A DNA stretch of 64,000 nucleotides. Source: a virus. Positions 14,541 to 55,848 of the stretch are shown in pieces. The stretch covers positions 1-64,000 of IMG/VR virus record IMGVR_UViG_3300020045_013318. The stretch is one strand, 5' to 3'. The position numbers and the translations under genes were made by a program. The notes under the pieces are model-generated. The model was not told the DNA's origin. It was given only the letters and a program-made list of their open reading frames with translations, and searched no databases. Numbering within the stretch: position 1 is the stretch's first letter; each line of letters begins with the position of its first letter.

Positions 14541-14957
14541 ATGATAAATGTAAAAGCCCAAGAAATTATAGATCGTATTGAAAAAGCCGCGCAAAATTAT
14601 GGCAAAGTATTTGACTTTGACAAAATTGTAACTGCCTTAAAAAAACATTATACAGCTCTAAACATTCCAATACCTAAAATTGTTGCCGTAGACAATATGG
14701 AAGAAGCTTATAAAAACGCTCGGGATGCCGCTCGGGATGCCGCTCGGGATGCCGCTTGGGGTGCCGCTGACATTCTTGCACTCAACCTCGATGAATACAA
14801 AGCAAAATACCCAAATGGAAACTTTATAAACTTGGTTCCACTCTATGAAGCAGGTCTCTACCCAGTCGGTGTCGTCGATGGGAAATTCATTGTGTACGTA
14901 CCACCATCGAAAACAGAGTTTCCAAGTGATTTAGTAGAGGAGATAGATAGTAAGTAA
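14541..14957 (+). CDS. RDAA/WGAA repeat protein spanning left junction (probable chimera)
   Basis: Composition shifts across repeat; N-half fits DUF6745-type protein, C-half a different family. Confidence 0.65.
   Translation: MINVKAQEIIDRIEKAAQNYGKVFDFDKIVTALKKHYTALNIPIPKIVAVDNMEEAYKNARDAARDAARDAAWGAADILALNLDEYKAKYPNGNFINLVPLYEAGLYPVGVVDGKFIVYVPPSKTEFPSDLVEEIDSK
14718..14768 (+). repeat. 12-bp tandem array: GCT + (CGGGATGCCGCT)x3 + TGGGGTGCCGCT
   Basis: Read directly; same units as 55027..55254. Confidence 0.97.
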
Positions 14958-14961
14958 AAGT

Positions 14962-15420
14962 ATGACCACCCCCGCAAAAAAGGAACACCAAAAACATTGT
15001 AGAGAACGATATGGATATGCGTGTTCTTGTTTCCCTAGTTCAGATATAAATCTTTCATCAGACGTATTTGAACCTACCCCCGCAAAAGAGTGGCGTGAAC
15101 AATTCAGAAATCAATTTTGGCTACATCGTGTACCTAAAAACACAAAGCAGATGCACGATATTGAAGACTTCATTCAAAACCTCCTCACCACCCACTCCGC
15201 TCGGCTTGTAGATAGGTTGGAAAGTAAGAGAAAAGAGTTCGTACCTGCTGATAATGTATGGGTTGGTGATGATGACTATGAAGTTGGGGAGTGGAAATTA
15301 GTACCAAAAGAAGACGGAATGTGGTGTTTGAATTGTGAGCAATTCATCCCAGAAGAAGGTTGTGCGTGTGGAGTTATATCAATCGACCAAGCCTTAGACA
15401 TTATCAAGGATAATAAGTGA
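14962..15420 (+). CDS. Hypothetical early protein with Cys clusters
   Basis: 152-aa ORF in tightly packed operon. Confidence 0.65.
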   Translation: MTTPAKKEHQKHCRERYGYACSCFPSSDINLSSDVFEPTPAKEWREQFRNQFWLHRVPKNTKQMHDIEDFIQNLLTTHSARLVDRLESKRKEFVPADNVWVGDDDYEVGEWKLVPKEDGMWCLNCEQFIPEEGCACGVISIDQALDIIKDNK

Positions 15421-15421
15421 T

Positions 15422-15706
15422 ATGAAAACAATGGAAGAACTACGAATCCTGGAAGTCCAAAAGGAAAAGGACCGCGAAGCAGAGGAAAAGCGACTTGCTG
15501 AGGAAGTGTTATGCGCTGAAATTACCTTCCCAACAAAGATGCAACTCGACCTCGGCATCTCTAACCTCACATTCAAATACGATGATGTAAAAGATTGGAT
15601 AGAAGAAGAACTTGCAAACGCCGATAAGAAGTCCGTCACATTCAGCATCAAGTTCTTTATAAAAACAAACAAGTGGATAGAGAATTTGCCCGAAGCGGAT
15701 ATTTAG
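15422..15706 (+). CDS. Hypothetical protein
   Basis: 94-aa ORF. Confidence 0.65.
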   Translation: MKTMEELRILEVQKEKDREAEEKRLAEEVLCAEITFPTKMQLDLGISNLTFKYDDVKDWIEEELANADKKSVTFSIKFFIKTNKWIENLPEADI

Positions 15707-15715
15707 TAACAGTAG

Positions 15716-15798
15716 GATGGGTGGTTTACACAGGGTCGTGCCTTTGCTGGATTCTCCAGCCCCTAAAGATGGGCGTGACCCGTTGCGAATCACTCATC
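15716..15798 (+). ncRNA. Structured intergenic RNA element
   Basis: Nested helices GATGGGTGGTT/AATCACTCATC, GGGTCGTGCCT/GGGCGTGACCC, GCTGGA/TCCAGC with G-U pairs on + strand. Confidence 0.45.
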
Positions 15799-15834
15799 AC
15801 AGACATAGGGATTATCAAGAGTAATTGAGAGAGT

Positions 15835-16023
15835 ATGAGCAATTATCAACTTATCGCACGAGACAGGATTACAGATGAGGAATTTACTGTTGTTGCTATG
15901 GATGACTATTTTGGAAGACATCACTACGGTTATGCCATAGGTGAACAAATTCTTACCGAGGAACAATTCCACCTAGCTTATGAGCCTGTAGTCAGTTCCC
16001 CCCACAATCGAACAGAGGATTAA
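15835..16023 (+). CDS. Hypothetical protein (DDYFGRHHYGY)
   Basis: 62-aa ORF. Confidence 0.65.
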   Translation: MSNYQLIARDRITDEEFTVVAMDDYFGRHHYGYAIGEQILTEEQFHLAYEPVVSSPHNRTED

Positions 16024-16034
16024 AAGATAAGCAA

Positions 16035-16427
16035 ATGAGCATGAACAAAACCTTTATTTTAGAACAACAGAAGATTGCGAGGGAGAGAGCCAAAAATGCT
16101 TTGCTCCCAAAAGGAATAGACTCAAACGGCTTTGGAATGACATACGAAGACCTTGACACCCTCATTGCCCAAACCATCCTCGCGACTGAGGAAGAGACTC
16201 TTGCACGAGTGAGGGGGGAAGCAATTACTATTACAGCAAGACTTGATAGAGAGTTTTTCAAAGGCAGATTTTCATCTAGTGGACTTGAGTCTATAGAAGC
16301 AATCATCAAAGACGAACTCACACCCACTCCCGTAGAGAGCGAAGAAAGCGGTTTTGCTAAATTCCTCAAAGAAAACGGTCACGGCAATTCAGCAACTTCC
16401 ACACCCTTACCAACCAATAAGACATAA
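16035..16427 (+). CDS. Hypothetical protein
   Basis: 130-aa ORF; shares ETLARVR block with next gene. Confidence 0.65.
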   Translation: MSMNKTFILEQQKIARERAKNALLPKGIDSNGFGMTYEDLDTLIAQTILATEEETLARVRGEAITITARLDREFFKGRFSSSGLESIEAIIKDELTPTPVESEESGFAKFLKENGHGNSATSTPLPTNKT

Positions 16428-16432
16428 GAGAC

Positions 16433-16732
16433 ATGACACAAACAAATGAGGAGAGAGTAGAGGCTCTTTACACAAACATAGTAATGATACTTATGAGTGG
16501 CTACCCAAGCGACCAAGAAGAAGAAAAAATAAAACTGCGCTTGACACAAGCCCTCACCCAAAACACTGCAGAGACTCTTGCACGAGTGAGGGAGGTTGCA
16601 GAAAGCTGTTCAGTTAGTGAAGTTACTCTACAGGGAGACACATATGAGACGGGTATGATTGCAAAAGAGCTGTTTCTTAAAAAACTCACCACCCTCACAC
16701 CATTAACATTAACAGACGATAAGACAGAATGA
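16433..16732 (+). CDS. Hypothetical protein
   Basis: 99-aa ORF. Confidence 0.65.
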   Translation: MTQTNEERVEALYTNIVMILMSGYPSDQEEEKIKLRLTQALTQNTAETLARVREVAESCSVSEVTLQGDTYETGMIAKELFLKKLTTLTPLTLTDDKTE

Positions 16733-16733
16733 C

Positions 16734-17087
16734 ATGAAAGAAATAATCATTGCATTTGACGTTGATGGAACAATTCTCAATAACGAAGGGATACCTCCTG
16801 AAACTCCAACTCATTTACGACCACGTTGTGGGGTAAATCTTGAGGTCATCCAACTGATTCAAATTCTTTCAAAGAAAATGAAAAACACCAAGATTATCGT
16901 GTGGTCAGGTGGGGGAAAAGAGTATGCAACGCAGATTGTTCGAGAATATGGATTAGATAAGTATGTGCACAGATGCCACAGTAAGCAAGACTACGACGAA
17001 ACAATAGATGGAGAAGTTGATATTTGTTTTGATGATGTTCACGCTTGCGAATTGGCGAAGATGAATCTAATTGTAAAAATGAAATGA
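16734..17087 (+). CDS. HAD-superfamily phosphatase-like protein
   Basis: FDVDGT, WSGGG, FDD motifs. Confidence 0.85.
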   Translation: MKEIIIAFDVDGTILNNEGIPPETPTHLRPRCGVNLEVIQLIQILSKKMKNTKIIVWSGGGKEYATQIVREYGLDKYVHRCHSKQDYDETIDGEVDICFDDVHACELAKMNLIVKMK

Positions 17088-17422
17088 AAAAGTACGACAG
17101 AGAAAAAAGGAGGTGGGTGACTGCAGAAGAATACGAACGTACCCATCAATCAAAAGATAAGGCGTTTTGTCATGGGAAAACCCCACACGATTTTGTTTTA
17201 GTACTACCAGAATATGTTTCATACGACAGTAGATATCAACACAATCCAGAAGCGTATTACGACCTACTTGATCAATACGAGAAATTGGAGGAAGAACTTG
17301 AGGAAAAAATAAAAGCAATGGGAGTAGTTGAGCGATTTTCTCGTGGAGGTAAGTGGAGAAGAAGTTATCGTTTTTATCTATGTTCAGCATGCAAGAAGAA
17401 GCATTACGAATACAAAGAGTAA
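17084..17422 (+). CDS. Hypothetical protein
   Basis: ATGA-coupled; C-terminal CSAC. Confidence 0.65.
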   Translation: MKKYDREKRRWVTAEEYERTHQSKDKAFCHGKTPHDFVLVLPEYVSYDSRYQHNPEAYYDLLDQYEKLEEELEEKIKAMGVVERFSRGGKWRRSYRFYLCSACKKKHYEYKE

Positions 17423-17426
17423 CACT

Positions 17427-17957
17427 ATGAAAAGATCTTGGATAAAAAGGGGAACAAAACAGATGAAAAGAACCCCTCTTCGTGCCAAATCAGGATTCAA
17501 GAAGATTCCGAAAGGATCCTCTACTCTAGTCACTCACTCTTCCCTTCGAAATTCAGGTAAATCTGAAGTATCTCAGTGTAAAAAGCGTATACAGGCACTT
17601 TTACGCCAGTTGGCCATCAAACGTGATGGAGGATGTGTTTTGAGGCATTATCAAGACCTTCTTCATCCGGACTATTTGACTTGCGATGATGTTCTTCAGG
17701 CAGAACATCTAAATACCCGAGGATCCTCAGGAAGTTTTGGAGATATGCGGAATATTGTCTGCTTGTGTAGGAGACACCACATTTATTTCAAACCCCAGCA
17801 CTCGCAGCTATATTGGGAAATTATTGAAAAACACCTTGGAGAAGAAGGATGGGCATATTATAAGAGAGTTCGAGATGATTATAGGGCACACCATATGATT
17901 CTCTGGGACTGGCAAAAATTGGAGATGGAGTTAACCCAACAATTGAAACATGACTGA
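17427..17957 (+). CDS. NinG-like HNH nuclease
   Basis: MKRTPL N-terminus; RDGGC...AEHL...NIVCLCRRHH. Confidence 0.7.
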   Translation: MKRSWIKRGTKQMKRTPLRAKSGFKKIPKGSSTLVTHSSLRNSGKSEVSQCKKRIQALLRQLAIKRDGGCVLRHYQDLLHPDYLTCDDVLQAEHLNTRGSSGSFGDMRNIVCLCRRHHIYFKPQHSQLYWEIIEKHLGEEGWAYYKRVRDDYRAHHMILWDWQKLEMELTQQLKHD

Positions 17958-18661: not shown

Positions 18662-18706
18662 ATATTTCTTGTTATTTACAATAGACCTTCTGTCACTGCC
18701 CGCCTG

Positions 18707-19126: not shown

Positions 19127-19231
19127 GTCTATATCATACCTCGTCCTGCCTTTAGACGACAACCCAAACTCTATCTCCCACCTCAATAAGTATACCCAAT
19201 TCAATGAGTTCCTATAACGATAGGGGGTGCA

Positions 19232-20262: not shown

Positions 20263-20263
20263 A

Positions 20264-34552: not shown

Positions 34553-35611
34553 TTAAGTTGCTCCTGCGAGTGTTCCATTAAGTCGGCAGTTTGTTGCTAC
34601 GAAGTTTCCTGCGTAGATGAGGTAGCCAACCTTTGTGAGTTGATCGACTGGGCTCATCATCTTGCGGAATTGGAATCCACGAGTTGACTTTACGTTTCCA
34701 GGAACTCCACTAGGTGTTGCATCAGAAGTCTGCTTAAAGTTTGCAGTCATGATGTTTTCATCTTCGTAGTTGAATCCTACGAATCCGAATGCCTTAGTGT
34801 TAACGAGGAAGTACTTTCCAGATGGAACCTGCTCATCTTTCGCAATTGGAGTACCACGGAAGGTAAGGTAAACGAAACCTTGCTGTCCACCAAGTCCTGG
34901 TGTAGCAGGAACGCCTCCCCATGCATTCATACGTGGGTATCCAGCTGTTGAGAAGTTTGCTCGTACGGTTGGAGTCAAAAGAGCCTCATAAGAAGACCAA
35001 AGTGACTTTGTAGTAAGGGCAAGATCTGGTGAATCTACTCCGATTGTTACTGTGTCATCAGCTGTTGCAAGCTTTGCAAGAGTGAGGGCACCAGTAGAAG
35101 CGAGGTAGTAGCCACTCCATGCTGAGTAGGTTGAACGTGAGAGTGAACCGTAAGTCGCAAAGAGAGTTGAGTCAGATGCACCGTTTGCAAGTGAGTCCCA
35201 GTCATTTCCTGTACCGTTTCCAGTATAGAGGTTCTGAGCCATGAGAGTCATAAGAGACTGACCTTGTGAGTCAAACTCGGTGTTGAGGAGATCAACAATC
35301 TTCTCATCTCCCATATTTGCTGTCGTTTCTGCAATTGCTACAACAACAGGCTTGTTTGCTGCCTTGAGGTTGAATGATGCCTTAACACGTACGTTCTGGC
35401 GATCTGTATCAAGACGATCAGCAATACCCATGTTTCCTCCATTCGTTGTATCTGCATACTTGATTGGAAAATCGTAGGTTACTCCTGATGTCCATTCCTT
35501 TGGTTTCGAAAGGAAGGTCATAAGACCTGGAGTTCCAGTCGTTACCTGATCGAACACTTTCTTGATAATGTATTCACGAGTTGTGGTCGTGACTGCTGCG
35601 TTAAAAATCAT
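34553..35611 (-). CDS. Major capsid protein
   Basis: 352 aa after scaffold; LY.GNG, L.FRGTPI..D...P.G..F.VN. Confidence 0.85.
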   Translation of the reverse strand: MIFNAAVTTTTREYIIKKVFDQVTTGTPGLMTFLSKPKEWTSGVTYDFPIKYADTTNGGNMGIADRLDTDRQNVRVKASFNLKAANKPVVVAIAETTANMGDEKIVDLLNTEFDSQGQSLMTLMAQNLYTGNGTGNDWDSLANGASDSTLFATYGSLSRSTYSAWSGYYLASTGALTLAKLATADDTVTIGVDSPDLALTTKSLWSSYEALLTPTVRANFSTAGYPRMNAWGGVPATPGLGGQQGFVYLTFRGTPIAKDEQVPSGKYFLVNTKAFGFVGFNYEDENIMTANFKQTSDATPSGVPGNVKSTRGFQFRKMMSPVDQLTKVGYLIYAGNFVATNCRLNGTLAGAT

Positions 35612-36465: not shown

Positions 36466-38328
36466 TTAAATAACCGGTGGTTCTCCTTCAGGAGGAGCTG
36501 ATGCCATCACTTGTTCTGGAGTCAAAGTTCCAGGCGTAAATGGAATAGGCATCTCCTCTTGTCCAATTCCTACTGCCTCCATCGGATTCTGTTGATAGAG
36601 AACAGCATTCTTTGCCAACTCTTTTGAGTTGTCATACTGAGCAATCTCAAGGTAGTCGACTGGACTGATGTATCCTTTTTCTACATCATTCTGAGCTTGT
36701 TCAAACTTGAATTCATCATCTTTTGGAAGAGTCTTGCCTGAAATAATGGTGATCTCAGATCCTGTTTCAAAGTCGTCTTGAATAAGTTCAATTACTTCGC
36801 GAGCCCCCTCCTTGCCCATCCATTTTGCATAGTGGTATTCGGTGTATCGAGTCTTTGCAAGTTGCATGCCCCAAGAAAACATTTCATGATACGCAAAGTC
36901 GACAACTTGGACCAACTCGTTGAGGCGAAGGTATGATTGTTGAATCAAAGCAAGTCGTCCAGCCTTAGTCTCTTGGCCTTGTCTCTCTCCTCGGAAAGCT
37001 GACGTTGCTGCCATGATGTTGTCAATTTCAGATCGTGAATCAATCATGTCGTCAAACACCATTTGAGGAAGAGTTCCTCCTGTCTCTCGCTGAACACCAT
37101 TGACTACTCCCTTCCCCCAGATGATTCCTTTGGTTTCCCATCGGATTCTTTGCGCATCTGACTTCGACATTACGTCGGAATCAACTTTGACAATTCCGTT
37201 TGCGAGTTCACAATTCTCATCAATATCCATCTTTCGTTTGTCGATTCCTCTTTGAAGCTCAGCTGATAGAGTAATCATGTCAGTTCTTCCAATTGGAGAA
37301 TTTTCATTATTGAAAATTGTCGCAAAGATGTACGGCTTTCTTGGAAAGTCGAAGTAGTTGAAGTAGAATGGCTTGTATTGAATCTTTTCTTCCTGATATT
37401 CTTGTTCAGGAGTTTCTTCCTCCATTCCAATCATAGACTTCATTGCGTCAATTCCTTTTTCCATCATTCCTTTTTCAGGAGGAGGAAGTTGAGATTGTTT
37501 CCTCTCTTCTTGCTGAGTCTTGATGTCTTGAATCTTATTTCGTCTTCCTTCTCCCTCAAGGGTGGCAAGCTCTTGTTCTTCTTCTTCGGTAATTAAAATA
37601 CCATCCCAATCCCAATATGGATTCTTGATACATCCAAGAATCAGTTCATCCATTTTGAAAATTACATAGTCTTGGATCCACGCCTCTTTGTATTTGCAGT
37701 CAGGGTTCTTGATATAGAGGTCAGCCTCTTTATGAATTCCAAACTTCTTCATCAACTCTTCTTTCTTATCAGGGAATCTTTCACAAATCGCACAAAGATT
37801 GTCATTTATTTCCTCAATGACGAATTCAGAATCAACTTCCTTTCGAGCATACTTCCCAACTCGAATCTTTCGTGGATCGACTGCTCGGAAGTCAAAGTCG
37901 TTGATTTGAGGATTCCAAAAAGGCTTAATGACAAGGAGTCGAGCAAAGTAAAGATTGCGAAGTCCCATACGCATAACCTCTTTTGAGTTGAGATCAAGAT
38001 ATTTCTTTTGAAAGAATCTCTCGAGTTTACGAGCAAAATCTTGAGCGACTTCTCCATCACGAGCAGGAAGGACGTTGACGCCAGGAGGATTTGCAATTAA
38101 AGAGTTGATCACCGCCTCCATATTGACAAAGATTCTATTTGCTTGAACAATCCACTTTCGTCGAACATGATTAATGTTTTCAAGCCACGCTGACGTATTT
38201 GAATAGATTGCAACATTCTCTTTGTATACTCGTTCAAGAATATCCCAAACCTCTGACGAGGAACTCCACCGGTTGTTGACCAGATCTTTCTTTTGTGAGT
38301 CGTCAAATGCTTTGATGTCTATTTTCAT
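36466..38328 (-). CDS. Portal protein
   Basis: 620 aa after TerL; LQRGIDKR...N and G..QGQETKAG P22-like portal patterns. Confidence 0.85.
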   Translation of the reverse strand: MKIDIKAFDDSQKKDLVNNRWSSSSEVWDILERVYKENVAIYSNTSAWLENINHVRRKWIVQANRIFVNMEAVINSLIANPPGVNVLPARDGEVAQDFARKLERFFQKKYLDLNSKEVMRMGLRNLYFARLLVIKPFWNPQINDFDFRAVDPRKIRVGKYARKEVDSEFVIEEINDNLCAICERFPDKKEELMKKFGIHKEADLYIKNPDCKYKEAWIQDYVIFKMDELILGCIKNPYWDWDGILITEEEEQELATLEGEGRRNKIQDIKTQQEERKQSQLPPPEKGMMEKGIDAMKSMIGMEEETPEQEYQEEKIQYKPFYFNYFDFPRKPYIFATIFNNENSPIGRTDMITLSAELQRGIDKRKMDIDENCELANGIVKVDSDVMSKSDAQRIRWETKGIIWGKGVVNGVQRETGGTLPQMVFDDMIDSRSEIDNIMAATSAFRGERQGQETKAGRLALIQQSYLRLNELVQVVDFAYHEMFSWGMQLAKTRYTEYHYAKWMGKEGAREVIELIQDDFETGSEITIISGKTLPKDDEFKFEQAQNDVEKGYISPVDYLEIAQYDNSKELAKNAVLYQQNPMEAVGIGQEEMPIPFTPGTLTPEQVMASAPPEGEPPVI

Positions 38329-38655: not shown

Positions 38656-40218
38656 TTATTGATTATTATCGCTGAATGCCCTGCTTACATCATAAACATT
38701 GTCTGCTCCAAGAACTGACGGAATATCTGCCTTTGTAACCTCTCCAAAGAATGCTCCTGATCCTTGTGAAAGCATTGCTAGATATGCATATAAATCAGCA
38801 AAAACATAGTGATCTTCTCCAGTTGTTGAATCCCAAACGTATCTCTCAATCCCTTTATTGCTGACGACTTTTGTACGCCTCAGCGTCTCATAATGCTTGA
38901 CATACAGCATGAATTCTTTATCTGCCTTGAGTCCAATTGAGTGTTTACCCTCAATCATTCCTGTCAAGTGTTTGTCAAGGATTCTATCACGATGTGAGTA
39001 GACAATTCCTTTTCGATCTCCTTCTCCCCACCATACGATTGTTTGAGGATTGTTGTTATTCTCTTGAAAGAACGACATTTTCATGAATGGGTACTTGTCA
39101 ATCAGGTATTTCGACAAAGTGTTATCAGGCATTGCGTCAATTACTCCTGCGGTGGGCTTCCAAAATGCGATTATATCATCAATTTCAGAATCTTTAGTGA
39201 TTCTTCCTATCTTAATTAATCCTAATTCACTGCGGACAACGTAGTGTTTAATGTTTCCTACGTCAATTCCAAGGAAAATATTGCCTGTTGTATTCAAATC
39301 ACGAGGAGTCCACAAGTCAAGAATGGTCGTTTTTGTGACCGAGAGGTCACCAGGACTGTAGCTTTTCCCAAGGACGAAGTTGTTGAAGTAGGCTGGATCT
39401 CCTTCCGAATCTTCAATGATTTCTTCTGGAGTGATCCAAGGACACATTAAGTGTGAAATGTGATATCCACTTGTTTTAGATCCTGGATTCTGAGCGACCC
39501 ACTTCCCTTGACGACGAACATCATCAGAGATTGGTTCTGTACATGCCCTACAAATATAGATCTTTCTCTCCATATCGATTGATTCTGGCCATTGGAGAAA
39601 GTGTTGATCTTTGCAATGAGGGCAGGTAATGGTCCACTCCTTTTGATCTGATTTGTGGAATTGAATATCGAGCTCATCTCGTTCTGTTCCTGGGTTGCTG
39701 AACATCCAACGCCCTTTGTATTGCGATGCTTTTGTACGAGATTTGTAGGTTTCAATTGCACTCTGATCTGAGCGAGAAATCTCATCGTGAATCAAGAGGT
39801 CGGCAGTTGTTGAAATGGCAGCAGTCTTTGAATTGGTACCCTTGAAGAAGATAAATCGATCATTAAGCTGCTTTCTTTCTATATTGTCGGTCTCCATTCC
39901 TTCAAACTCATGATAGTTTGCTTGGATGATTTTATTCATTTTTGACGAGACAAACTCTCGAACATCATCATCTGACGACATTGTGTAAATTGCGTTGAAT
40001 CTCAGGTATTTAATCGCAAACAGCGATTTAATTGAGAAGGTGACTGATTTCCCAACCTGAGCACAAGCTGTAAGAACTATCGTTGGATTCCAATCACATA
40101 GAATGTCAAGAAGAAAAGGACGATCAATAAAGCTGAAAGGTTCACCCTTTTCATCAACAATTCCTTCTTGGACGATCCATTGAAGGATTGAGTAGTATTG
40201 TTTAGTTTCCTTCTTCAT
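38656..40218 (-). CDS. terL: Terminase large subunit (lambda gpA-like)
   Basis: AQVGKS, HDE, SNP, SDQKEW...CPHC zinc motif, GIDVG nuclease, DHY. Confidence 0.92.
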   Translation of the reverse strand: MKKETKQYYSILQWIVQEGIVDEKGEPFSFIDRPFLLDILCDWNPTIVLTACAQVGKSVTFSIKSLFAIKYLRFNAIYTMSSDDDVREFVSSKMNKIIQANYHEFEGMETDNIERKQLNDRFIFFKGTNSKTAAISTTADLLIHDEISRSDQSAIETYKSRTKASQYKGRWMFSNPGTERDELDIQFHKSDQKEWTITCPHCKDQHFLQWPESIDMERKIYICRACTEPISDDVRRQGKWVAQNPGSKTSGYHISHLMCPWITPEEIIEDSEGDPAYFNNFVLGKSYSPGDLSVTKTTILDLWTPRDLNTTGNIFLGIDVGNIKHYVVRSELGLIKIGRITKDSEIDDIIAFWKPTAGVIDAMPDNTLSKYLIDKYPFMKMSFFQENNNNPQTIVWWGEGDRKGIVYSHRDRILDKHLTGMIEGKHSIGLKADKEFMLYVKHYETLRRTKVVSNKGIERYVWDSTTGEDHYVFADLYAYLAMLSQGSGAFFGEVTKADIPSVLGADNVYDVSRAFSDNNQ

Positions 40219-41761
40219 TCGTTAGAGTAACCTCCATTCCTACCAACGCAGACGTGATGGCAACAGCACTCTCTAAAGCAAGTCGAGTTACTTTGAATGG
40301 ATCAATGATGCCTGCCTCAAACATATTGACATGCTTTTTGTTCTTGAAGTCAATTCCTATGCCATTTTCGGTATTAACACTTACATTGGTGGGCAATCTA
40401 AATAGCTTCTGGATCCAAGTTTTTTGATACATTCCTGAGTTGTCTACCATTTGAGTGAAGGGGGTAGATAAAGCGTTCTTAAATATTGAATCTTCATGTC
40501 TAAATGCGGCCGTTAGGAGAGCTAGTCCTCCTCCAGGAAGTATTCCTTCTTGAAGAGCTGCTTGAGTAGCATTAATTGCATTCTCAAACTTATACTTCTT
40601 GGCATTGAATTCGGTGTCTGTGTACGCCCCAACTCGAATCACTCCAATTCCTCCCGTCAGCGCAGCCAAGCGATCATTAAGTATTTCTTTCTGATATTCT
40701 GAGGTAGTTGAATCAATCTCTCCCTGAATCACTTTGATTCGATCCCAAAGTTCTGGATTTTCAGTCGCTCCAATGATGGTTGTTCGATCTTTAGTTACGA
40801 TGACTTTTTCCGCTCGTCCACACACCTCTTTCGTTTGTTTATCGAGTCGCATTCCTCTCTCCTCCGAAATGATGGTTGCTCCTGTCAATGCTGCCATATC
40901 AAGAAGGAAGTCTCGTGCCGGAGAGGCAGTATATGGATTACGAACACATGCGATGTTGGCAATTTTGTTGACGGCATTCTGAGCGAGAGTCCCAAGAGCA
41001 ACTCCATCAACGTCATCGGCTATGATTAGAATGTCGTTCCCCGTTCCAATTGAGTTTAATAGAGAAATAATCTGCTCATTAGTACTTATCTTTCGATCAA
41101 CTAGAATGATGTAGGGATTTTCAAGAATTGTCTGCATCTGCTGATGATCATTGACGAAATATGGAGAAATAAGACCTCTTTCAAATCGAGCTCCTTTCAC
41201 CACCTCTTTTGAATAGCCTAGCTGTGCCCCCTTTTCAACTGTCACTACCCCCTTAACACCAACCTCTTTGATTACTTCCGCAATTAGCTTTGCAACTTCA
41301 GGATCTAGTGATGAAATGTTGGCAATTTTTTCAATATCATCTTGAGATACTTCTCGTTTAATATATTCAAGTTGTGCAAGTACTTCCTCCAATCCTTGAG
41401 TCAGTCTCTCTTTTATTTTTCGACTCTTTGAGCTGTCTTTCCCAAGCTCTTTGAAGGCTTCAGTGAGAAGTGCTTGAGTAAGAACTGTCGTTGTGGCCGT
41501 TCCGTCTCCACCTTCGACCGATGTTCGAACACCCGCTTTGCGGAGCATTTGAAGTCCAATATTTTCGTATTTATCTTTAAAGTCAAGCTGTCTAAGGATC
41601 GTTACTCCATCATCACATTCAATAGGATCCAAGCCAGGAACCTCAATGAATGCTGTCATCCCGACTGCTCCAAGTGTTGGTCGAACAGCATCACACGCCT
41701 TATCAATTCCAGCCTTGACTCTCATTCTTGCTTCGTGTCCCTTTAGTATTTGTTTGCTCAT
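40202..41761 (-). CDS. groEL: Phage-encoded chaperonin GroEL
   Basis: TLG, DGVTI, GDGTATT, RG.ISPYF, ERLA-like/GGIGVI.VGA.T, GI.PGGG, GIIDP.KV. Confidence 0.95.
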   Translation of the reverse strand: MSKQILKGHEARMRVKAGIDKACDAVRPTLGAVGMTAFIEVPGLDPIECDDGVTILRQLDFKDKYENIGLQMLRKAGVRTSVEGGDGTATTTVLTQALLTEAFKELGKDSSKSRKIKERLTQGLEEVLAQLEYIKREVSQDDIEKIANISSLDPEVAKLIAEVIKEVGVKGVVTVEKGAQLGYSKEVVKGARFERGLISPYFVNDHQQMQTILENPYIILVDRKISTNEQIISLLNSIGTGNDILIIADDVDGVALGTLAQNAVNKIANIACVRNPYTASPARDFLLDMAALTGATIISEERGMRLDKQTKEVCGRAEKVIVTKDRTTIIGATENPELWDRIKVIQGEIDSTTSEYQKEILNDRLAALTGGIGVIRVGAYTDTEFNAKKYKFENAINATQAALQEGILPGGGLALLTAAFRHEDSIFKNALSTPFTQMVDNSGMYQKTWIQKLFRLPTNVSVNTENGIGIDFKNKKHVNMFEAGIIDPFKVTRLALESAVAITSALVGMEVTLTNEEGN

Positions 41762-46046: not shown

Positions 46047-46652
46047 ATGGCGAAAAAAACAGCAACAATGAAGCTTGGGAAAGCAGACTACGCAAAAGTT
46101 CCCGACAGAGTAAAAGAGTTCAGAACTGCACACCCAGACGGAAAGATCGAACAAGACAATATTAATCTTCCAGATGGACAAATTGAGTTTAGAGCTTGGA
46201 TTTGGAAAGATAAAACCCAACTAATCGAACTGATAAAGTCTGGCGTAACGAACACAGCTGTTCTGCGATCCAGTTCCGACTCAAATGGAACGGCCAAGAA
46301 GGCTACAAAAGACGTCAAAGATTTTGAAAAACTTGAAACTATTGCGGTAGGACGAGCTTTGGCAATGCTTGGATACCTTGCGAGTGGAGAGATAGCCTCA
46401 AGTGAAGAAATGGAGGAGTTTCTTGCAGATAAAGAACAAAAAGCTCAGGAGGAAATCAATGAAATAACTGAAAAGATTGGTGAATGTAAATCTGATTATG
46501 CACTTGCAAAGTACTGGCTTTCACTTCCTGGAATCTTCAAAACTAATCCTGCAGTATTCCTAGCCAAAGAGGAGAAGAAGAAGAGTTTTAAGAAACCAAA
46601 GGAAGAAGAGGTCTCTCCTGAGGAGGGGATAATCGAAGAGGAAACACAATGA
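46047..46652 (+). CDS. Probable single-strand annealing protein (recombinase)
   Basis: YAKVPDRV...EKLETIAVGRALA; coupled to exonuclease, near SSB. Confidence 0.6.
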   Translation: MAKKTATMKLGKADYAKVPDRVKEFRTAHPDGKIEQDNINLPDGQIEFRAWIWKDKTQLIELIKSGVTNTAVLRSSSDSNGTAKKATKDVKDFEKLETIAVGRALAMLGYLASGEIASSEEMEEFLADKEQKAQEEINEITEKIGECKSDYALAKYWLSLPGIFKTNPAVFLAKEEKKKSFKKPKEEEVSPEEGIIEEETQ

Positions 46653-47380
46653 AAATAATAACATACGACAGTCGAGAGGAGTGGCTCAAGGGTCGCCTTG
46701 GCAAGATCACAGGATCTAAACTCAATGAGGTGTTCTCTGTCAAGGAGGTAACAAAGGATGAGATTTCGAAGATTCTAGATCGAGAAAAAATTGAGTACAA
46801 AAAGAGCGAAAAGAAGGAAGTTTTGGAGCAATTGGTTCCAGAAAAATACAAATCAGAACTTCTGGGAAAGCGAGAGTATAAACTTGGATTCTATGAAGTA
46901 TTGGCAGAACGATTGTCTGTTCCCGAAGAGGGAAATGAGACACCAATAGATCGCGGAACTCGACTTGAAGGACCAGCTCTTGACGTCTTTGCAGAAATGA
47001 CTAAAAAGAAAATCAAAAATGACTTGATTCTTTGGGTCTCTGATGAGGATGAGGGAATGGCCTACTCACCTGATGGATGTATTTCACCCAAGGAAGTCGT
47101 TGAGGTAAAATGTTTGTCTTCTGCCAGACACTTAATGGCATACTTCGAACAAACAATTCCTTCTGAGTATGTCAAGCAGTGCTTGCAGGGATTTATAGTC
47201 AATGAAAAGCTTCAGATTTGTCATATTGCCTTCTTTGATCCAAGAATTCCATCAAAACCTCTTCACTGGATAACTCTCAATCGGAAAGATCTTGTTTCGG
47301 ACATTGAGATGTATCGACAACACGAATTATCAACAATTAAAGAATTAGAAGAAAAAGTTAATCAACTAGCATCATACTAA
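46649..47380 (+). CDS. YqaJ/lambda-type exonuclease
   Basis: EWL..R.GKITGS, RGTRLE, SPDG, EVKC, Y..Q. Confidence 0.9.
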   Translation: MKIITYDSREEWLKGRLGKITGSKLNEVFSVKEVTKDEISKILDREKIEYKKSEKKEVLEQLVPEKYKSELLGKREYKLGFYEVLAERLSVPEEGNETPIDRGTRLEGPALDVFAEMTKKKIKNDLILWVSDEDEGMAYSPDGCISPKEVVEVKCLSSARHLMAYFEQTIPSEYVKQCLQGFIVNEKLQICHIAFFDPRIPSKPLHWITLNRKDLVSDIEMYRQHELSTIKELEEKVNQLASY

Positions 47381-47562: not shown

Positions 47563-48015
47563 ATGTCAATCAATCTAAATGTGGCAATTGTGTCAGGACG
47601 CCTTGTTCGAGATCCAGAATTAAAAGCACTCCCAAGTGGGGTTTCAATTTGTAATTTCAGTCTAGCTACCAATCACATCTATACAAAAGATAGTGAAAAA
47701 AAGGAGTCGGTTGAATTTCATAATGTCGTCCTGTTTGGGAAACAAGCAGACAACACGGCTCGGTTCCTCAAAAAAGGATCAGAAGCTCTCGTTGAGGGTC
47801 GCCTTCAAACTCGATCTTGGGAAAAAGATGGCGTAAAGCACTACCGAACTGAAATTGTGGGAGACTCAATACAATTTGGATCCAAACAATCATCTCAAAA
47901 CAACGATGTTGAAGAAGAGAATAATGAGGAAGAAACTCCAAAATTAAAAACAAAGAAGATTGAAGCGCCTGAATATCCAGAAGGTGAGATAAATCCCGAC
48001 GATATTCCTTATTAA
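47563..48015 (+). CDS. ssb: Single-stranded DNA-binding protein
   Basis: GRL.RDPE...FSLATN...VEGRLQTRSW; DDIPY tail. Confidence 0.95.
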   Translation: MSINLNVAIVSGRLVRDPELKALPSGVSICNFSLATNHIYTKDSEKKESVEFHNVVLFGKQADNTARFLKKGSEALVEGRLQTRSWEKDGVKHYRTEIVGDSIQFGSKQSSQNNDVEEENNEEETPKLKTKKIEAPEYPEGEINPDDIPY

Positions 48016-48076
48016 AATGAGGTGTGCATAACTGAAGTTGTTTCAAAACCAAAGTATGAGATACTTGTCGGATGCA

Positions 48077-48845: not shown

Positions 48846-48925
48846 TTATGCACCTTTAGATTTGATTGTCCTATACCAATCAAGTATACTGAAGGTTGGC
48901 TCGTTCTTTGAAAAGGAGAAAGAAA

Positions 48926-49651
48926 ATGCTTAAAGTAAATGAAATCTTTGGACCAACAATCCAAGGTGAAGGAAAGAATGCGGGGAAGCCAGTTGTTTTC
49001 CTCCGCTTGTCGCAATGCAATCTCCACTGTATTTGGTGTGATACTCCTCATACATGGAATTGGGAGGGTACGAAGTTTGCTCACCCAATCAAGTTTGTCC
49101 AAACTGAAGAAGAGCATCTGATGTCAGTTGATGATGTTTTTTTGAAGGTTTTGGAAAAAAGTGGTGGAGAAATCGAGTCGTTGGTGATCTCGGGCGGCGA
49201 GCCCCTTCTTCAACAAAAAGAACTAACCGACCTGCTTCGCGTCTTGAAGTCGATTGGTTGGTTTGTTGAAGTTGAAACCAATGGAACGGTCCCACTCCGA
49301 CCTGAGTTTGCAATTTTGATAGATCAGATCAATTGCTCTCCCAAGTTGGCAAATTCGTTGGATCCTGAATCGCTTCGAATCAAGAAGAAGACGTTAGAGC
49401 AACTTGCTTCAAATTCTAAAGTCAACTTCAAGTTTGTTGTGTCAGATGAAGGAGATGTCCCTGAAATCTTGTCGATTGTTGAACTGCTTCGGCAGTCTGG
49501 CACTCCTGAGATTCGTCTGATGCCCCTTTGTCAGACGCGGGAAGAACTCGAGATGAGAGAACTTCTCGTCAAAGAGTTGGCCCAGAAGCACAACTTCATT
49601 TACTGCACACGGTTGTCGATTTTGATGTCGGGGACCAAGCGTGGTGTTTGA
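48926..49651 (+). CDS. queE: 7-carboxy-7-deazaguanine synthase (radical SAM)
   Basis: TIQGEG...FLR...CNLHCIWCDT, SGGEP, VETNG, SPK. Confidence 0.95.
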   Translation: MLKVNEIFGPTIQGEGKNAGKPVVFLRLSQCNLHCIWCDTPHTWNWEGTKFAHPIKFVQTEEEHLMSVDDVFLKVLEKSGGEIESLVISGGEPLLQQKELTDLLRVLKSIGWFVEVETNGTVPLRPEFAILIDQINCSPKLANSLDPESLRIKKKTLEQLASNSKVNFKFVVSDEGDVPEILSIVELLRQSGTPEIRLMPLCQTREELEMRELLVKELAQKHNFIYCTRLSILMSGTKRGV

Positions 49652-49856: not shown

Positions 49857-50291
49857 ATGTTAATTACCAAAGAAATAGAAATCGACATGGGTCACCGTGT
49901 CACAAATCACAAATCGAAGTGCAGTTCACTTCACGGACATCGTTATCGAATTGAAGTAGGAGTTGATGATAAAGTAATCACAACCGAAGGATCTTCGGAC
50001 GAAGGAATGGTGATAGACTTTGGAGATTTGAAAGAAGTTATGATGGAAGTATTGGATGCTCCATTCGATCATGGAATGGTCTTATGGCTCAAAGATCCTC
50101 TTGTTTCATATATTCTAGCAGATGAAAAGACTAAGTGTCACTTGGTTGGATTTATTCCAACGGCAGAAAATCTAGCTCGGTATTGGTTCTATCTTTTGAA
50201 GCCAAGATTGGAGGAGAGAGATGTTAAAATTAAACACATTAAAGTTTGGGAAACTCCATCTAGTACCGCAACATATGAAGAAACTAACTAA
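49857..50291 (+). CDS. queD: 6-carboxytetrahydropterin synthase
   Basis: GHR...KC..LHGHRY...GMVIDFG...DH...PTAEN...WET. Confidence 0.95.
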   Translation: MLITKEIEIDMGHRVTNHKSKCSSLHGHRYRIEVGVDDKVITTEGSSDEGMVIDFGDLKEVMMEVLDAPFDHGMVLWLKDPLVSYILADEKTKCHLVGFIPTAENLARYWFYLLKPRLEERDVKIKHIKVWETPSSTATYEETN

Positions 50292-50916
50292 AGCAAACGG
50301 AAATATATTCCGTTCAGAAGAAGAAAAAGAATCAATGGTCCTCAGTGCATCACATCATTATGGGTTGTTTCTCAACGCTCTAGGATTCGATTGGGAGGCC
50401 GATTCAGCAATGAAAGATACACCAACACGAGTGGCGAAGGCGTGGGTTTATGACTTAATTTCAGGATCTATGGCAAAAGAGCCATCTGATAAATCATTTC
50501 CAAACGAAGAGGGGTACACTGGACTAATTTGTCAAACAAACATTCCGGTTGTCAGTATTTGTGCTCATCATCACTTGCCATTCACAGGGACTGCTCATGT
50601 TGCTTATATTCCTGGAAAAACAATTCAAGACTCAGTGATTGGACTTAGTAAATTGAATCGAATTGTCGAATTCTATTCACGACGTCCAAATATTCAAGAA
50701 TCTCTTACAAAGCAAGTTCACGATCATATTGACCGGCTATGTGTTGGGAATCGAGGAGTTGCAGTTGTCATTGAGGCTCAACATAGTTGTGTTTCTTGTA
50801 GAGGCGTAAGACATACAAGCAAGATGAAGACAAGTCAGTTGTCGGGGTATTTTTGGGCCAACGAAGTTGGTACAAGACAAGAATTCTTCAATCTAATTGA
50901 CCAGGGGAGATATTAG
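50275..50916 (+). CDS. folE: GTP cyclohydrolase I
   Basis: DTP.RV, S.CAHHHLPF.G, GLSKL.R, R...QE, HSC...RG. Confidence 0.97.
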   Translation: MKKLTKANGNIFRSEEEKESMVLSASHHYGLFLNALGFDWEADSAMKDTPTRVAKAWVYDLISGSMAKEPSDKSFPNEEGYTGLICQTNIPVVSICAHHHLPFTGTAHVAYIPGKTIQDSVIGLSKLNRIVEFYSRRPNIQESLTKQVHDHIDRLCVGNRGVAVVIEAQHSCVSCRGVRHTSKMKTSQLSGYFWANEVGTRQEFFNLIDQGRY

Positions 50917-50933
50917 AAGTAGAATGAAAGTAT

Positions 50934-52172: not shown

Positions 52173-52977
52173 AGTATCATTCATTGCTCCAACGAGTCTG
52201 ATCCCACAATACGGGAACCAAGGAGATTTTCATCTAGCACTCGCTCATCTTCTTGGGCCAGTCAATGAGACTCCTAACGAGTACGAACAAGCGTTGATCA
52301 ACTCAGGACTTCCAATCATTCTTGACAATGGACTATTTGAAAATAAAGAATCGGTCCCAGTACGAGAATTAATGGAGAAGGCTGTCCACCTCAACGCAAC
52401 ACATGTCTTTGCTCCTGATGTTCTTTTTGATCGAGAGGGTACAGAGGCAAATATTGAGGAGGCTTATGCAGTTCTAGAGGAGATTAAGGCAGACTTTCCA
52501 GAATGCCAAACAAAACTTGCAGCAGTTGTTCAGGCAAACAGCGCTGATGATTTTCTAGCAAGCTACCTTCTCATGGCAGACGATCCAAGAATCGATCTGA
52601 TAGGGTTATCCATTCTGTCTGTTCCACATTCATTTAAGGAGATCTCAGGAACTGACGACATTACAATCAATCGAATTATCTGCCTCAAGAGACTCAACAA
52701 ACTTCCAATTCATAAAGACTCACACCTTCTTGGACTTGGAGACTCATACGAAGATGTTGCGTTTGCAAACGAGCATTGTCCTTGGGTTGTTTCTCACGAC
52801 AGCTCATCTGCTGTCTGGAATGGAGTTCAGGGGAAGAATATTCACTCAACATCTCTCAAGGTTGCTGGAGGTAAAACTAAAGTTCATGTCGACTTTGCCT
52901 TTGGGGATGAGTTGACTGAGGTACAAGTGGCCGACATTACACACAACATTGAAGTCGTTAAATCAATCATTAAATAA
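52165..52977 (+). CDS. TGT-fold DpdA-like deazaguanine transglycosylase
   Basis: ILDNG.FE, APDV, VVQ, HLLG, S.DSSSA; within que/fol cluster; subfamily not assignable by eye. Confidence 0.75.
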   Translation: MIKVSFIAPTSLIPQYGNQGDFHLALAHLLGPVNETPNEYEQALINSGLPIILDNGLFENKESVPVRELMEKAVHLNATHVFAPDVLFDREGTEANIEEAYAVLEEIKADFPECQTKLAAVVQANSADDFLASYLLMADDPRIDLIGLSILSVPHSFKEISGTDDITINRIICLKRLNKLPIHKDSHLLGLGDSYEDVAFANEHCPWVVSHDSSSAVWNGVQGKNIHSTSLKVAGGKTKVHVDFAFGDELTEVQVADITHNIEVVKSIIK

Positions 52978-52978
52978 T

Positions 52979-53365
52979 ATGCAAATCAATCCACGAACAA
53001 TCCTCGATCGAGGAATCATAAAGTATTGTGAAACAACCAAGGTTCAGCAGGTAGGAGTAGATCTCTCAATTGGACAAGACTTTGTCGTCAAAGTGGGCGA
53101 GTCGAAGAATATCAACTTCCGAGAAAGCATCAAGCTTCCTGACAACATGTATGCACTGTTCTATGTGCGATCATCATGGAGTCGCAAGGGAGTATTTGTA
53201 AGTTCTGGCGTCTACGATAGTGGATATGAGGGAACGATTGGGTGCACCATCTACAATATGTCTGGAGAAGATGTTCAATTTACAGAAGGAGATCGTATTG
53301 GGCAAATGATTTGTTATTTGGCTGATGCGGCAAGTAGTTACAATGGTCAATTTCAGGGGAAATAA
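52979..53365 (+). CDS. dCTP deaminase / trimeric dUTPase family protein
   Basis: GVDL, RSSWSRKG, DSGYEG, RIGQ, YNGQFQ. Confidence 0.85.
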   Translation: MQINPRTILDRGIIKYCETTKVQQVGVDLSIGQDFVVKVGESKNINFRESIKLPDNMYALFYVRSSWSRKGVFVSSGVYDSGYEGTIGCTIYNMSGEDVQFTEGDRIGQMICYLADAASSYNGQFQGK

Positions 53366-53509
53366 TATGAGAGTAAAAATTAAAATATCGTCAGGGAAAA
53401 TCCTCGAGATTGAGGGAAAGATTCTTGAGAAGAGAGAGTTGTTTGGACGCAAGGAGGCTCTGATTGATGGGAAGCTGTCGAAGCCTATCTGGGTGACTAT
53501 TCCAAAAAA

Positions 53510-53836
53510 ATGAAAGGAATAGATTTCTCCGCATTGAAGGAGAGATTGAAAAATCCAACAGACGATCTTCCAAACTTCCCATACGAATTTTGGGTAAATA
53601 AGACAGCAAAGCTATTGAAAAAACCCTACATTCAAGTTCATGGATTAGTCGCAAAAGAAGGATTGACACTCGAGGGGATCACAAGGAGATACAACAACGC
53701 AACAAAACACAATGGAGACATGCCGTCGGAAGTCTATTGGTGGTGGAGGAGAAAGGTTGAATATAAAAATGAAAAAGAAAAAAGTATACCCAACAAACAA
53801 AAGTGTGCACCTTCTCGGGAAGGTAGCAAATCATGA
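53510..53836 (+). CDS. Hypothetical protein
   Basis: 108-aa ORF in operon. Confidence 0.6.
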   Translation: MKGIDFSALKERLKNPTDDLPNFPYEFWVNKTAKLLKKPYIQVHGLVAKEGLTLEGITRRYNNATKHNGDMPSEVYWWWRRKVEYKNEKEKSIPNKQKCAPSREGSKS

Positions 53837-54302
53837 AGGCAAACTCAAGGTTAAATTAAATGGACCTCAGTACTTGGATCACTTCCTCAAGAATCACACT
53901 AAGGTTGGAGATGATGTTTTGATGGTTGTGACAGCAAAAAGGCCAAAAAGGTCAGCTTCTCAAAACAACTTCTTTTTTGTCTATTTAGATTTAATCTCTC
54001 TCTCATGTGGACACTCAATTGAGGAGCTCCATAAGTGGGTCAATGGGTACATCTTGGGACAAGGAATCACTGAAGTGTTTGGCCAGAAGGTTCGTATGGT
54101 TGGAAGTACTTCTGATCTCAATATCAGTGAGTTTTGTGAGATGATGAATAGAATTTTTGAAGAGACTGATATTCCGATTCCAGATCCTGAGCCCTTCAAT
54201 CTTCCTCTGACGTACAATGAGTTTGGAAAATTAAAACTAGATCAGCAAATTCAGTATAAAAAAATGAAAAATAGACTTCTCGAGAGGAATTTGTCTAATT
54301 AA
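53769..54302 (+). CDS. NinB-like recombination protein
   Basis: RSASQN...EELH...STSDL...EF. Confidence 0.75.
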   Translation: MKKKKVYPTNKSVHLLGKVANHEGKLKVKLNGPQYLDHFLKNHTKVGDDVLMVVTAKRPKRSASQNNFFFVYLDLISLSCGHSIEELHKWVNGYILGQGITEVFGQKVRMVGSTSDLNISEFCEMMNRIFEETDIPIPDPEPFNLPLTYNEFGKLKLDQQIQYKKMKNRLLERNLSN

Positions 54303-54396
54303 GTGCATATTTTGAAGTAAATGACTGTTCATAACTATAGTTGATAGGGATAAGGAATGGGAGTATGGTGTATGTATACAAGTATAAGCAAACAAT

Positions 54397-54582
54397 ATGA
54401 GAAAACAACAAAACCAAGGCTACGAAATATACAACACCTTCAAACGAAGCCCTATCGAGAACGATTGGTACATCATCCCCCTTGTTATTCTAGGCACCTT
54501 CCTCGCCGTAACCCTATACGCAGGAGTAGATTTGGTCTTTAATGTCATGGTCGAGTTTATTGGAGGGTTAATGGTGAACTAA
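54397..54582 (+). CDS. Small membrane protein
   Basis: First ORF after promoter at 54326; TM helix. Confidence 0.6.
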   Translation: MRKQQNQGYEIYNTFKRSPIENDWYIIPLVILGTFLAVTLYAGVDLVFNVMVEFIGGLMVN

Positions 54583-54583
54583 C

Positions 54584-54826
54584 ATGACATTCATACAAGA
54601 GAAGGTGGAGGCTCTATTTAAAGACGACTCAATTCGCAGTCGCAAATTTGAAAACAAAATAAAGAAAGCCCTCACTGAAGCTCTCGAAGAAGGCAAGCGG
54701 ATGGCCTGTGCAGAGATAGAGAAGAGGGTGGAACAGACGCATGGCTTTACAAGCCCAAATTCAGTTGAAAGAATCATTAAGGAACGTGACATCCTCACCA
54801 TTACCAAGGAGATAGCTAACAAATAA
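54584..54826 (+). CDS. Hypothetical protein
   Basis: 80-aa ORF. Confidence 0.6.
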   Translation: MTFIQEKVEALFKDDSIRSRKFENKIKKALTEALEEGKRMACAEIEKRVEQTHGFTSPNSVERIIKERDILTITKEIANK

Positions 54827-54828
54827 AT

Positions 54829-55848
54829 ATGAAATACAAACAAGAACTACCTGTAAAAGTTGAAGCACAATTAGACGCATACATAGAACGTATCAAAGCG
54901 ATTAAATGGTTCCAACCAAGTAGTGAATTAAAACGTGCAGAGATTGACACCCAAGTAAACCTTGCCCTTAAGGCATTTGGTGTAGAAGCATCTATTGAGT
55001 ATCGAACATTAAAAACACCACAAGATTGGGATGCCGCTTGGGATGCCGCTCGGGATGCCGCTCTGGATGCCGCTTGGGATGCCGCTTGGGATGCAGCTTG
55101 GGATGCCGCTTGGGATGCCGCTCGGGATGCCGCTCGGGATGCCGCTCTGGGTGCCGCTTGGGATGCCGCTTGGGATGCCGCTTGGGATGCCGCTCGGGAT
55201 GCCGCTTGGGGTGCCGCTTGGGGTGCCGCTTGGGATGCCGCTTGGGGTGCCGCTGCAATAAATACTAAATTACAGGATAAAACAATGCTTAAATTTATTG
55301 AAATTGAAACCCCCTTATTGGAAGCTTTAGAATTTGGTTTGGGATATTTCTTTCCCATGAAAGATATGCTAATTATTGTCCCTTGTCCTTCTTTTATTTT
55401 TAACAATAAAAAACAATTACATTCAGAAGAGACAATGGCTATATCATGGAAAGATGGAACGGGGTATTATTTCCTTGATGGAGTAAAATTAAAAGAATCT
55501 GTTTGGAAAAACATTCTCTCTCGTTCTATGTCTTTTGAAGAAGTTGCCATGCTTAAAAATATAGAAGATCGTATGGTCGCTCTTAAATACAACCCTAATG
55601 CTCTTCTTAAAAATGCGATTTTACTTGACAAAACAAAGCGTAACGAACTTTGGCTTATAGAAGGATTTGGTACAAATTCACAAAACAAAATTGATGCCTT
55701 TTTTCTGAAATATACTTGTCCTTCTACAGGTAGAGTTTATACAAAAGGCGTTCCTGTTGAAGTTGGCAAACAAAAAGATGCTGACGAAGCTCAAGCATGG
55801 AGCCATTGGCTTTCAAAAGAGGCTTATCAATTATTAAATGAGTCTTAA
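54829..55848 (+). CDS. WDAA-repeat protein with C-terminal DUF6745-like domain, spanning right junction (probable chimera)
   Basis: LHSE...AISWKDG...YFLDGV...NIEDR...CPSTGR.Y...VP. Confidence 0.75.
   Translation: MKYKQELPVKVEAQLDAYIERIKAIKWFQPSSELKRAEIDTQVNLALKAFGVEASIEYRTLKTPQDWDAAWDAARDAALDAAWDAAWDAAWDAAWDAARDAARDAALGAAWDAAWDAAWDAARDAAWGAAWGAAWDAAWGAAAINTKLQDKTMLKFIEIETPLLEALEFGLGYFFPMKDMLIIVPCPSFIFNNKKQLHSEETMAISWKDGTGYYFLDGVKLKESVWKNILSRSMSFEEVAMLKNIEDRMVALKYNPNALLKNAILLDKTKRNELWLIEGFGTNSQNKIDAFFLKYTCPSTGRVYTKGVPVEVGKQKDADEAQAWSHWLSKEAYQLLNES
55027..55254 (+). repeat. 19 x 12-bp tandem array (TGG/CGG/CTG)(GAT/GGT)GCCGCT
   Basis: Counted directly; one unit has GCA instead of GCC. Confidence 0.98.

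Follow-up and report, generated by a model that had tools for sequence, protein, structure and literature searches.

Hybrid genes at two 12-bp coding arrays mark the predicted nesting of a 40-kb phage genome in a second phage-like genome

Phage mosaicism arises through homologous recombination at short common sequences, and in Campbell-type insertion a single crossover between a circle and its target leaves two hybrid junctions on either side of one unit genome. Genomes can also be joined during assembly: in the simulated viromes of one study, the majority of the assembled contigs is given as chimeric (PMC4247695). Here, we analyze a 64,000-nucleotide stretch of viral DNA (the window), which comprises bases 1-64000 of the 77,135-bp record IMGVR_UViG_3300020045_013318, classed in IMG/VR as a linear virus record and without a terminal repeat. 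Two of its open reading frames (ORFs), ORF 14541 and ORF 54829, each contain an in-frame array of a 12-bp unit and appear to be reciprocal hybrids of two protein families, which we call S and L, the latter ending in a C-domain of the DUF6745 (PF20530) type. With high confidence, we read the interval 14769-55025 as a complete phage genome nested in the L gene of a second phage-like genome, and, with the same confidence, the nesting as the outcome of one Campbell-type crossover in the array. That the join was made in the assembler or in a contig-merging step is the explanation that we favor, at a rough probability of 0.55.

The locus shares with Campbell-type insertion the two hybrid junctions around one unit genome that a circle-by-target crossover would leave, and its S and L profiles are split as attP and attB are. 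It is unlike that process in that the site is a coding minisatellite within two different protein genes and the target is another phage-like genome, and the event may not be cellular. No integrase family was found among the 30 window ORFs scanned with PHROGs (20 of the 58 inner ORFs among them), and there is no defined att core. As in chimeric metagenome and virome contigs, the junction of two genomes that differ in composition falls precisely on a common repeat, related contigs break at such arrays, and a composite contig is found in the same clade; unlike in such contigs, the sequence in common is short for assembly at large k. If the event was real, it would resemble phage mosaicism in that unrelated phages exchanged DNA over a brief stretch of identity and one of them encodes recombination functions, but the stretch would be an in-frame tetrapeptide array and the product a whole-genome cointegrate plus two chimeric proteins, not a module replacement.

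Two hybrid ORFs and the families that they combine

We cut both ORFs at their arrays and refer to the N- and C-halves of ORF 14541 as N_L and C_S, and to those of ORF 54829 as N_S and C_L. Each ORF is intact and keeps its frame. A search with full-length ORF 14541 recovered 111 proteins of 80-239 aa; compared with the four parts by BLASTP, 109 of these are N_S + C_S, the other two are N-truncated proteins with C_S alone, and none contains N_L. Among proteins of 186-594 aa, N_S matched eight, all of the S type and not longer than 239 aa, and none of the eight joins N_S to C_L. The eight proteins matched by C_L include none with N_S and six with a precomputed PF20530 annotation; the nearest match, P0003 (70% identical), has a shortened and weak N_L-like start. 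Finally, N_L (58 aa) was compared by phmmer with the full set of 1.84 billion representatives; of its nine matches, seven are N_L + array + C_L, one (P0124) is N_L + C_S, and the last is P0123, described below. Among all classified proteins we count 112 N_S + C_S, 7 N_L + C_L (with P0003 as a weak addition), 1 N_L + C_S, and 0 N_S + C_L. As a separate observation, a 142-aa protein (P0123) with an N_L-type N-domain apparently continues in another reading frame past the start of its array, and may represent a frameshifted or misassembled array.

The family profiles are likewise split between the two junctions. The L profile (A2) matches the record with positions 1-77 at 14541-14768 and with positions 60-297 at 55129-55839, pieces that lie 40 kb apart, and the S profile (A1) matches with positions 1-120 at 54829-55182 and with positions 91-175 at 14652-14933. 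A continuous gene covering the whole profile is present in the record for neither L (A2) nor S (A1); as a positive control, A1 matched 5/5 known S holders. ORFs 14541 and 54829 are thus confirmed, at the level of sequence, as reciprocal hybrids of families S and L. An earlier reading of the DNA alone (the original prediction) had proposed exactly such swapped halves, with N_S belonging to C_S and N_L to a DUF6745-type C-domain, and the re-swapped pairings do have full-length homologs. That reading also implied that homologs with the as-assembled pairings would be wanting, which stood for ORF 54829, whose pairing was never found, and not entirely for ORF 14541, whose pairing was found once (P0124).

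Proteins of the S family (about 125-240 aa) consist of N_S, the array, and C_S, and those of the L family of an N-domain, an array that repeats every four residues, and a DUF6745-type C-domain, an architecture shared with the PF20530 proteins. The DUF6745-like domain that had been placed in C_L holds through homologs and not by direct match. ORF 54829 matches no Pfam family at E<=1 and hence lies below the PF20530 gathering score (27 bits), so its kinship with DUF6745 is drawn by way of the C_L homologs. Half of the eight pass the cutoff (P0006, P0007, P0008, and P0010, at 28.0-58.8 bits); P0004, P0005, and P0009 score 22.4-26.5 bits, and P0003 has no match. C_L itself aligns with the PF20530-bearing homologs at E values of 1.4e-32 to 4.8e-21 (phmmer and BLAST). 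Unlike in the DUF6745 proteins, the N-domain of ORF 54829 is that of the S family.

The two families are themselves related. C_S aligns with the first ~40 residues past the array in DUF6745-type proteins, and an hhalign comparison of S with L gives a probability of 99% (E 2e-18) over 130 columns, which run from the last part of the N-domain through the array to ~40 residues beyond it; much of this score comes from the repeat. In AlphaFold models with predicted local distance difference test (pLDDT) values of 87.2 for L and 75.3 for S, the order of structural elements is equal up to a beta-hairpin past the array. Given this alignment and the matching order of the models, the S family resembles an L family reduced to its N-terminal module, with the C-domain missing. 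A Foldseek comparison of the L model with the Protein Data Bank returned nothing at E<=0.001; the best VIA Z of 5.7 is under the meaningful level, and the rows for WGR domains (Z 4.9-5.3) were not used as evidence. No literature was found under the names DUF6745 or PF20530 in a search that left supplementary files outside its scope, and these names led to no printed account of the two families, of the partner gene conserved with them, or of the N-terminal module that they have in common.

The two arrays are the only 12-bp arrays detected in the window by Tandem Repeats Finder, and a pattern search of the full record (77,135 bp) found none besides. They share the + strand and one register, GAT GCC GCT xGG, giving D-A-A-W/R/L. 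As had been predicted, a unit of 12 bp leaves the frame of either hybrid undisturbed, since the register of the array is common to the S and L genes. The codons are identical in the left and right arrays, with 35 nt as the longest exact common run. In blastn searches against GenBank phages, the arrays alone match, at 82-87% in Mycobacterium phage Maddy2 and at 72-76% in 13 Propionibacterium freudenreichii phage records, which points to similar GC-rich coding arrays in unrelated actinophages; tblastn of P0011 and P0122 against GenBank phages gave no match.

At 33 IMG/VR loci (L099-L131), L-family arrays always have the 4-residue period and are built from many different units (SAWS, xQVx, SQLx, xAVx, xASV/xDSV, DATx, and xDAA), and the N-domains are diverse as well. 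A homolog of the partner gene that precedes ORF 14541 (YRHG...H.EH) adjoins the L gene at 23 of these loci, 18 times immediately upstream on the same strand, 4 times downstream, and once divergently; it is present at 22 of the 24 L loci that have upstream DNA, and a partner + L pair is likewise found on contig G002. The association of this partner with L-type genes, another part of the original prediction, is upheld by these loci. S genes were found on contigs of metagenome-assembled genomes of Patescibacteria (L096, 122,695 nt) and Saccharibacteria (L097), and one IMG/VR record that matches S, with identical match statistics, is classed as a provirus. The occurrence of the S gene thus offers the Patescibacteria/Saccharibacteria group as a lead to candidate hosts. 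A scan of metagenomes with A1 yielded three short loci and was swamped by repeat patterns.

An inner phage genome and an outer phage-like genome

The composition of the DNA changes at both arrays, with the insert richer in GC than either flank (Table 1). In 1-kb windows, the GC fraction rises at the left array (0.333 to 0.422) and falls at the right one (0.414, 0.362, and then 0.325). GC content at third codon positions (GC3) is 0.17-0.21 in the partner gene and N_L, 0.38 in C_S, and 0.09-0.22 in C_L and the genes that follow it, so that a step from 0.21 to 0.38 falls within ORF 14541. The shift in AT content at each array, as it had been noted from the letters alone, is borne out by both measures. 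The tetranucleotide GATC shows an observed/expected count of 30/48 (0.62) in the left flank, 211/149 (1.42) in the insert, and 37/73 (0.51) in the right flank. Between the 58 inner and the 46 outer ORFs we observe one homologous pair, the GroEL-like genes, which are 27% identical.

The insert encodes head, portal, terminase, and recombination functions (Table 1), as well as tail genes recognized in the PHROG scan. The ORF upstream of the exonuclease gene (46047-46652) matches only families of unknown function, and no annealase for a Red/RecET-like module was identified among the inner ORFs scanned. The large terminase subunit (TerL) has 57 IMG/VR relatives, at most 92% identical. Near-complete relatives of the inner phage (92-100% by CheckV) measure 37-44 kb, and direct terminal repeats were detected in four of the relatives searched (G004, G007, G009, and G012). 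In the closest relative, G001, no more than 0.7 kb separates the homolog of ORF 53712 from those of ORFs 16035 and 14962, which come next and precede that of ORF 17328, so the right and left ends of the insert are contiguous there. Judging from this gene order, the insert is one circularly permuted unit genome that would have been opened at the S gene. None of 15 close relatives of the inner phage has an S gene (5 searched with P0011 and tblastn, 10 with A1); the S gene is therefore accessory, and closure of the circle is read from the flanking genes in G001 only. As a side observation, the inner phage also has a QueE-like radical SAM gene (48896-49651), a GTP cyclohydrolase gene (50221-50916), and a dCTP deaminase/dUTPase-like gene (52949-53365), a set that would fit a 7-deazaguanine DNA modification cluster.

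By its sequence, the outer genome, of at least 36.6 kb, resembles that of a phage. The evidence for this includes a phage-type helicase in the left flank, the GroEL-like gene in the right one, and a capsid Pfam match at record positions 74570-75535 that stays below threshold (25.1 bits against a cutoff of 27, in a scan of ten large outer ORFs). Outer tail-fibre-like ORFs have segments 34-35% identical in relatives of the inner phage. Most large outer ORFs match nothing in PHROG or Pfam: among the ten in record positions 62.9-76.0 kb, no structural PHROG family was matched and one ORF had a single match of unknown function (phrog_5906), and ORFs 3280-4524, 58593-59903, 60268-62022, and 62027-62926 gave no PHROG match. 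No cellular genes were recognized in the flanks, and a host chromosome on both sides is not supported. Relatives of the outer genome were sought with its GroEL, which found one IMG/VR locus at 30% identity, and with P0003 and ORF 14962, which found no locus; an intact "empty site" of the outer phage was not found in these searches. Because the partner gene adjoins the L gene at most of the loci described above, the left flank (partner and N_L) and the right flank (C_L) are best read as one interrupted outer gene pair.

We propose that the inner 40.3-kb phage carries an S gene (N_S, xDAA array, C_S) and that the outer, AT-richer genome carries the partner followed by an L gene (N_L, xDAA array, C_L). 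If the inner genome, as a circle, crossed over once with the outer L gene within the common 12-bp array, the product would be outer-left, partner, N_L-array-C_S, the whole inner genome, N_S-array-C_L, and outer-right, in this order. The two hybrid ORFs would then be the left and right scars of one nesting.

Table 1. Coordinates of the two arrays, the two hybrid ORFs, and other features of the window
Feature	Position	Strand	Details
Left array, 12-bp unit, crossover site	14717-14768	+	4.3 copies, 95% matches; RDAA x3, then WGAA (Tandem Repeats Finder)
Right array, 12-bp unit	55026-55254	+	19.1 copies, 92% matches; units W/R/L - D/G - A - A (Tandem Repeats Finder)
Left junction hybrid ORF (ORF 14541)	14541-14957	+	138 aa; N_L 14541-14716, array, C_S 14769-14957
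Right junction hybrid ORF (ORF 54829)	54829-55848	+	339 aa; N_S 54829-55025, array, DUF6745-like C_L 55255-55848
Partner gene, YRHGD...HEEH	14225-14539	+	104 aa; PHROG 27831, E 4.4e-11; stops 2 nt before ORF 14541
Inner phage genome, predicted to be opened at the S-family gene	14769-55025	.	40,257 bp, GC 41.8%
Major head protein, inner	34553-35611	-	PHROG 9953, E 4.3e-28
Portal protein, inner	36466-38328	-	PHROG 156, E 1.6e-6; 86% identical in G001
Terminase large subunit, inner	38656-40218	-	PHROG 675, E 3.8e-79
GroEL-like chaperonin, inner	40202-41761	-	PHROG 5725, E 1e-114
Recombination exonuclease, RecE-like, inner	46649-47380	+	PHROG 149, E 4e-17; PHROG 434, E 4.3e-15
Single-strand DNA-binding protein, inner	47563-48015	+	PHROG 44, E 1.3e-42
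NinB/Orf-like recombination mediator, inner	53712-54302	+	Weak match, PHROG 72, E 2.3e-7; 0.7 kb from right junction
Left flank, outer phage-like genome	1-14716	.	GC 35.5%
Methyltransferase-like ORF, outer	7251-7907		Left flank
Helicase, outer	7904-9073		Phage-type, PHROG scan
Right flank, outer genome	55255-64000	.	GC 36.1%; runs on to base 77,135 of the record
GroEL-like gene, outer	56248-57969	+	Right flank

An assembly join weighed against a recombinant molecule

In the assembly explanation, a circle that shares a repeat with a linear path would form a loop, which the assembler walks once. Several observations on related contigs argue for it. Both ends of G002 (L077-L079) lie inside L-family 12-bp arrays, and at 5 of the 33 L loci (L112, L113, L120, L122, and L123) the contig begins inside the array; L-family 12-bp arrays are recurrent assembly break points. 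In addition, two S proteins, P0016 (180 aa) and P0018 (136 aa), have the same sequence except for 44 residues in the array, and the lengths of their contigs (40,515 and 40,383 nt) are exactly 132 nt apart, a pattern that reflects either array length polymorphism or array collapse in what is otherwise one phage genome. Finally, contig G006 (57,878 bp; L089-L091), whose TerL is 74% identical, holds at 49.5-57.9 kb parts of a second copy of the structural module, 65-68% identical, which runs off the contig end. This contig is rated 100% complete and looks like a composite of two related phages. A misassembly inside a single genome was considered and rejected: such a genome offers only one path and no swap at two direct repeats, so an artefact needs two genomes.

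Other observations weigh against a join made in silico. The left array is short for large-k assembly at 52 nt, and the exact common run is shorter still; a de Bruijn assembly with a final k above ~53 cannot cross the left array unless reads span N_L, array, and C_S, so a join made wholly in silico would require a small k, a step that merges overlaps, or gap closing. Recombination in vivo over 35-52 nt of homology is mechanistically possible, with a predicted exonuclease, single-strand DNA-binding protein (SSB), and NinB/Orf-like protein present in the inner phage, and arms of 35-50 nt suffice for Red-type systems. P0124 is an independent hybrid with the pairing of ORF 14541 in another lineage. 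As a side observation, GC3 in N_S (54829-55025) is 0.23, compared with 0.40-0.48 in its inner neighbors, and thus nearer to that of the outer genome; this may reflect a recent horizontal origin of the S gene.

The strongest alternative is that the nesting is real. Upon co-infection, a circular or concatemeric inner phage would have recombined with the outer phage in the xDAA array, probably by means of its own exonuclease/SSB/NinB-type functions, and the 77-kb molecule, or its two recombinant junctions if nothing more, would be present in the sequenced DNA. We regard this as possible and short of even odds. It predicts the same topology as an assembly join, and a left array below the final k of many current assemblers would suggest that reads spanned it. 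The recombination module in the insert, the codon identity of the arrays with their exact common run, and the second occurrence of the hybrid pairing in P0124 also fit, and the tail-fibre-like segments found in relatives of the inner phage are compatible with a common host range. However, a cointegrate of 77 kb would have roughly double the unit length of inner-clade genomes and would be hard to package and unlikely to dominate a sample, and if the parents were dominant, the assembly would be expected to break at the arrays. No second record of the junction was found, a 35-nt probe from the C_S side having 0 exact matches in IMG/VR, and neither hybrid protein is among the matches from our searches of a 5.8-billion-protein collection. 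The composite G006 arose in the same clade without any array. P0124 is itself a singleton on one 3.6-kb contig, and P0003, P0122, and P0124 each occur once, on single contigs of 3.3-5.9 kb.

A swap within one genome, in which a single 77-kb phage owns both genes and its arrays exchanged the C-halves as built-in domain shuffling, is improbable. In its favor, neither hybrid is broken or out of frame, S and L proteins show homology around the array, and their predicted secondary-structure order is alike up to the hairpin that follows it, so the hybrids might fold. One crossover between two direct repeats on one molecule, however, would delete or duplicate the interval and would not swap its ends reciprocally, as follows from the topology. 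The interval is also a self-sufficient phage genome, with a GC content and GATC usage of its own and relatives of similar size, and shares a single homologous gene pair with its surroundings. The suggestion in the original prediction that such arrays shuffle domains between two genes of one phage is not supported, as the genes appear to belong to two genomes. Least credible of all is that nothing was swapped and that the as-assembled pairings are native to a family so modular that N-domains and C-modules combine freely: P0124 and the great diversity of L-family N-domains and array units would fit, but pairing among the classified proteins is strongly nonrandom, and both exceptional pairings in the record sit exactly on its two composition boundaries.

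Consequences for phage records and for the DUF6745 superfamily

If the join was made in silico, as we favor, the 77-kb molecule and the two hybrid proteins need not occur in nature. The record would then be a warning case, in which an entry rated 100% complete consists of two genomes and contains two possibly nonexistent proteins. The in-frame 12-bp arrays of the DUF6745 superfamily would be a site of repeated assembly failure in phage metagenomes, where contigs end and where array and contig sizes vary together.

If the junctions are real, a coding minisatellite would act as a recombination site between unrelated phages, with in-frame shuffling of protein modules, and would supply a concrete mechanism of mosaicism in a very diverse and uncharacterized accessory gene family. 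We put forward only tentatively, and consider rather unlikely, the corresponding proposal that an in-frame tetrapeptide minisatellite is a portable crossover site between co-infecting phages, with the 77-kb molecule or both of its junctions real. Were it true, entire phage genomes would be joined at such a crossover site, DUF6745-superfamily proteins would trade their N- and C-modules in frame as a side effect, and P0124 would represent another outcome of this process that has become fixed. Either way, the locus defines two related families, S and L, with a conserved partner gene and a common N-terminal module.

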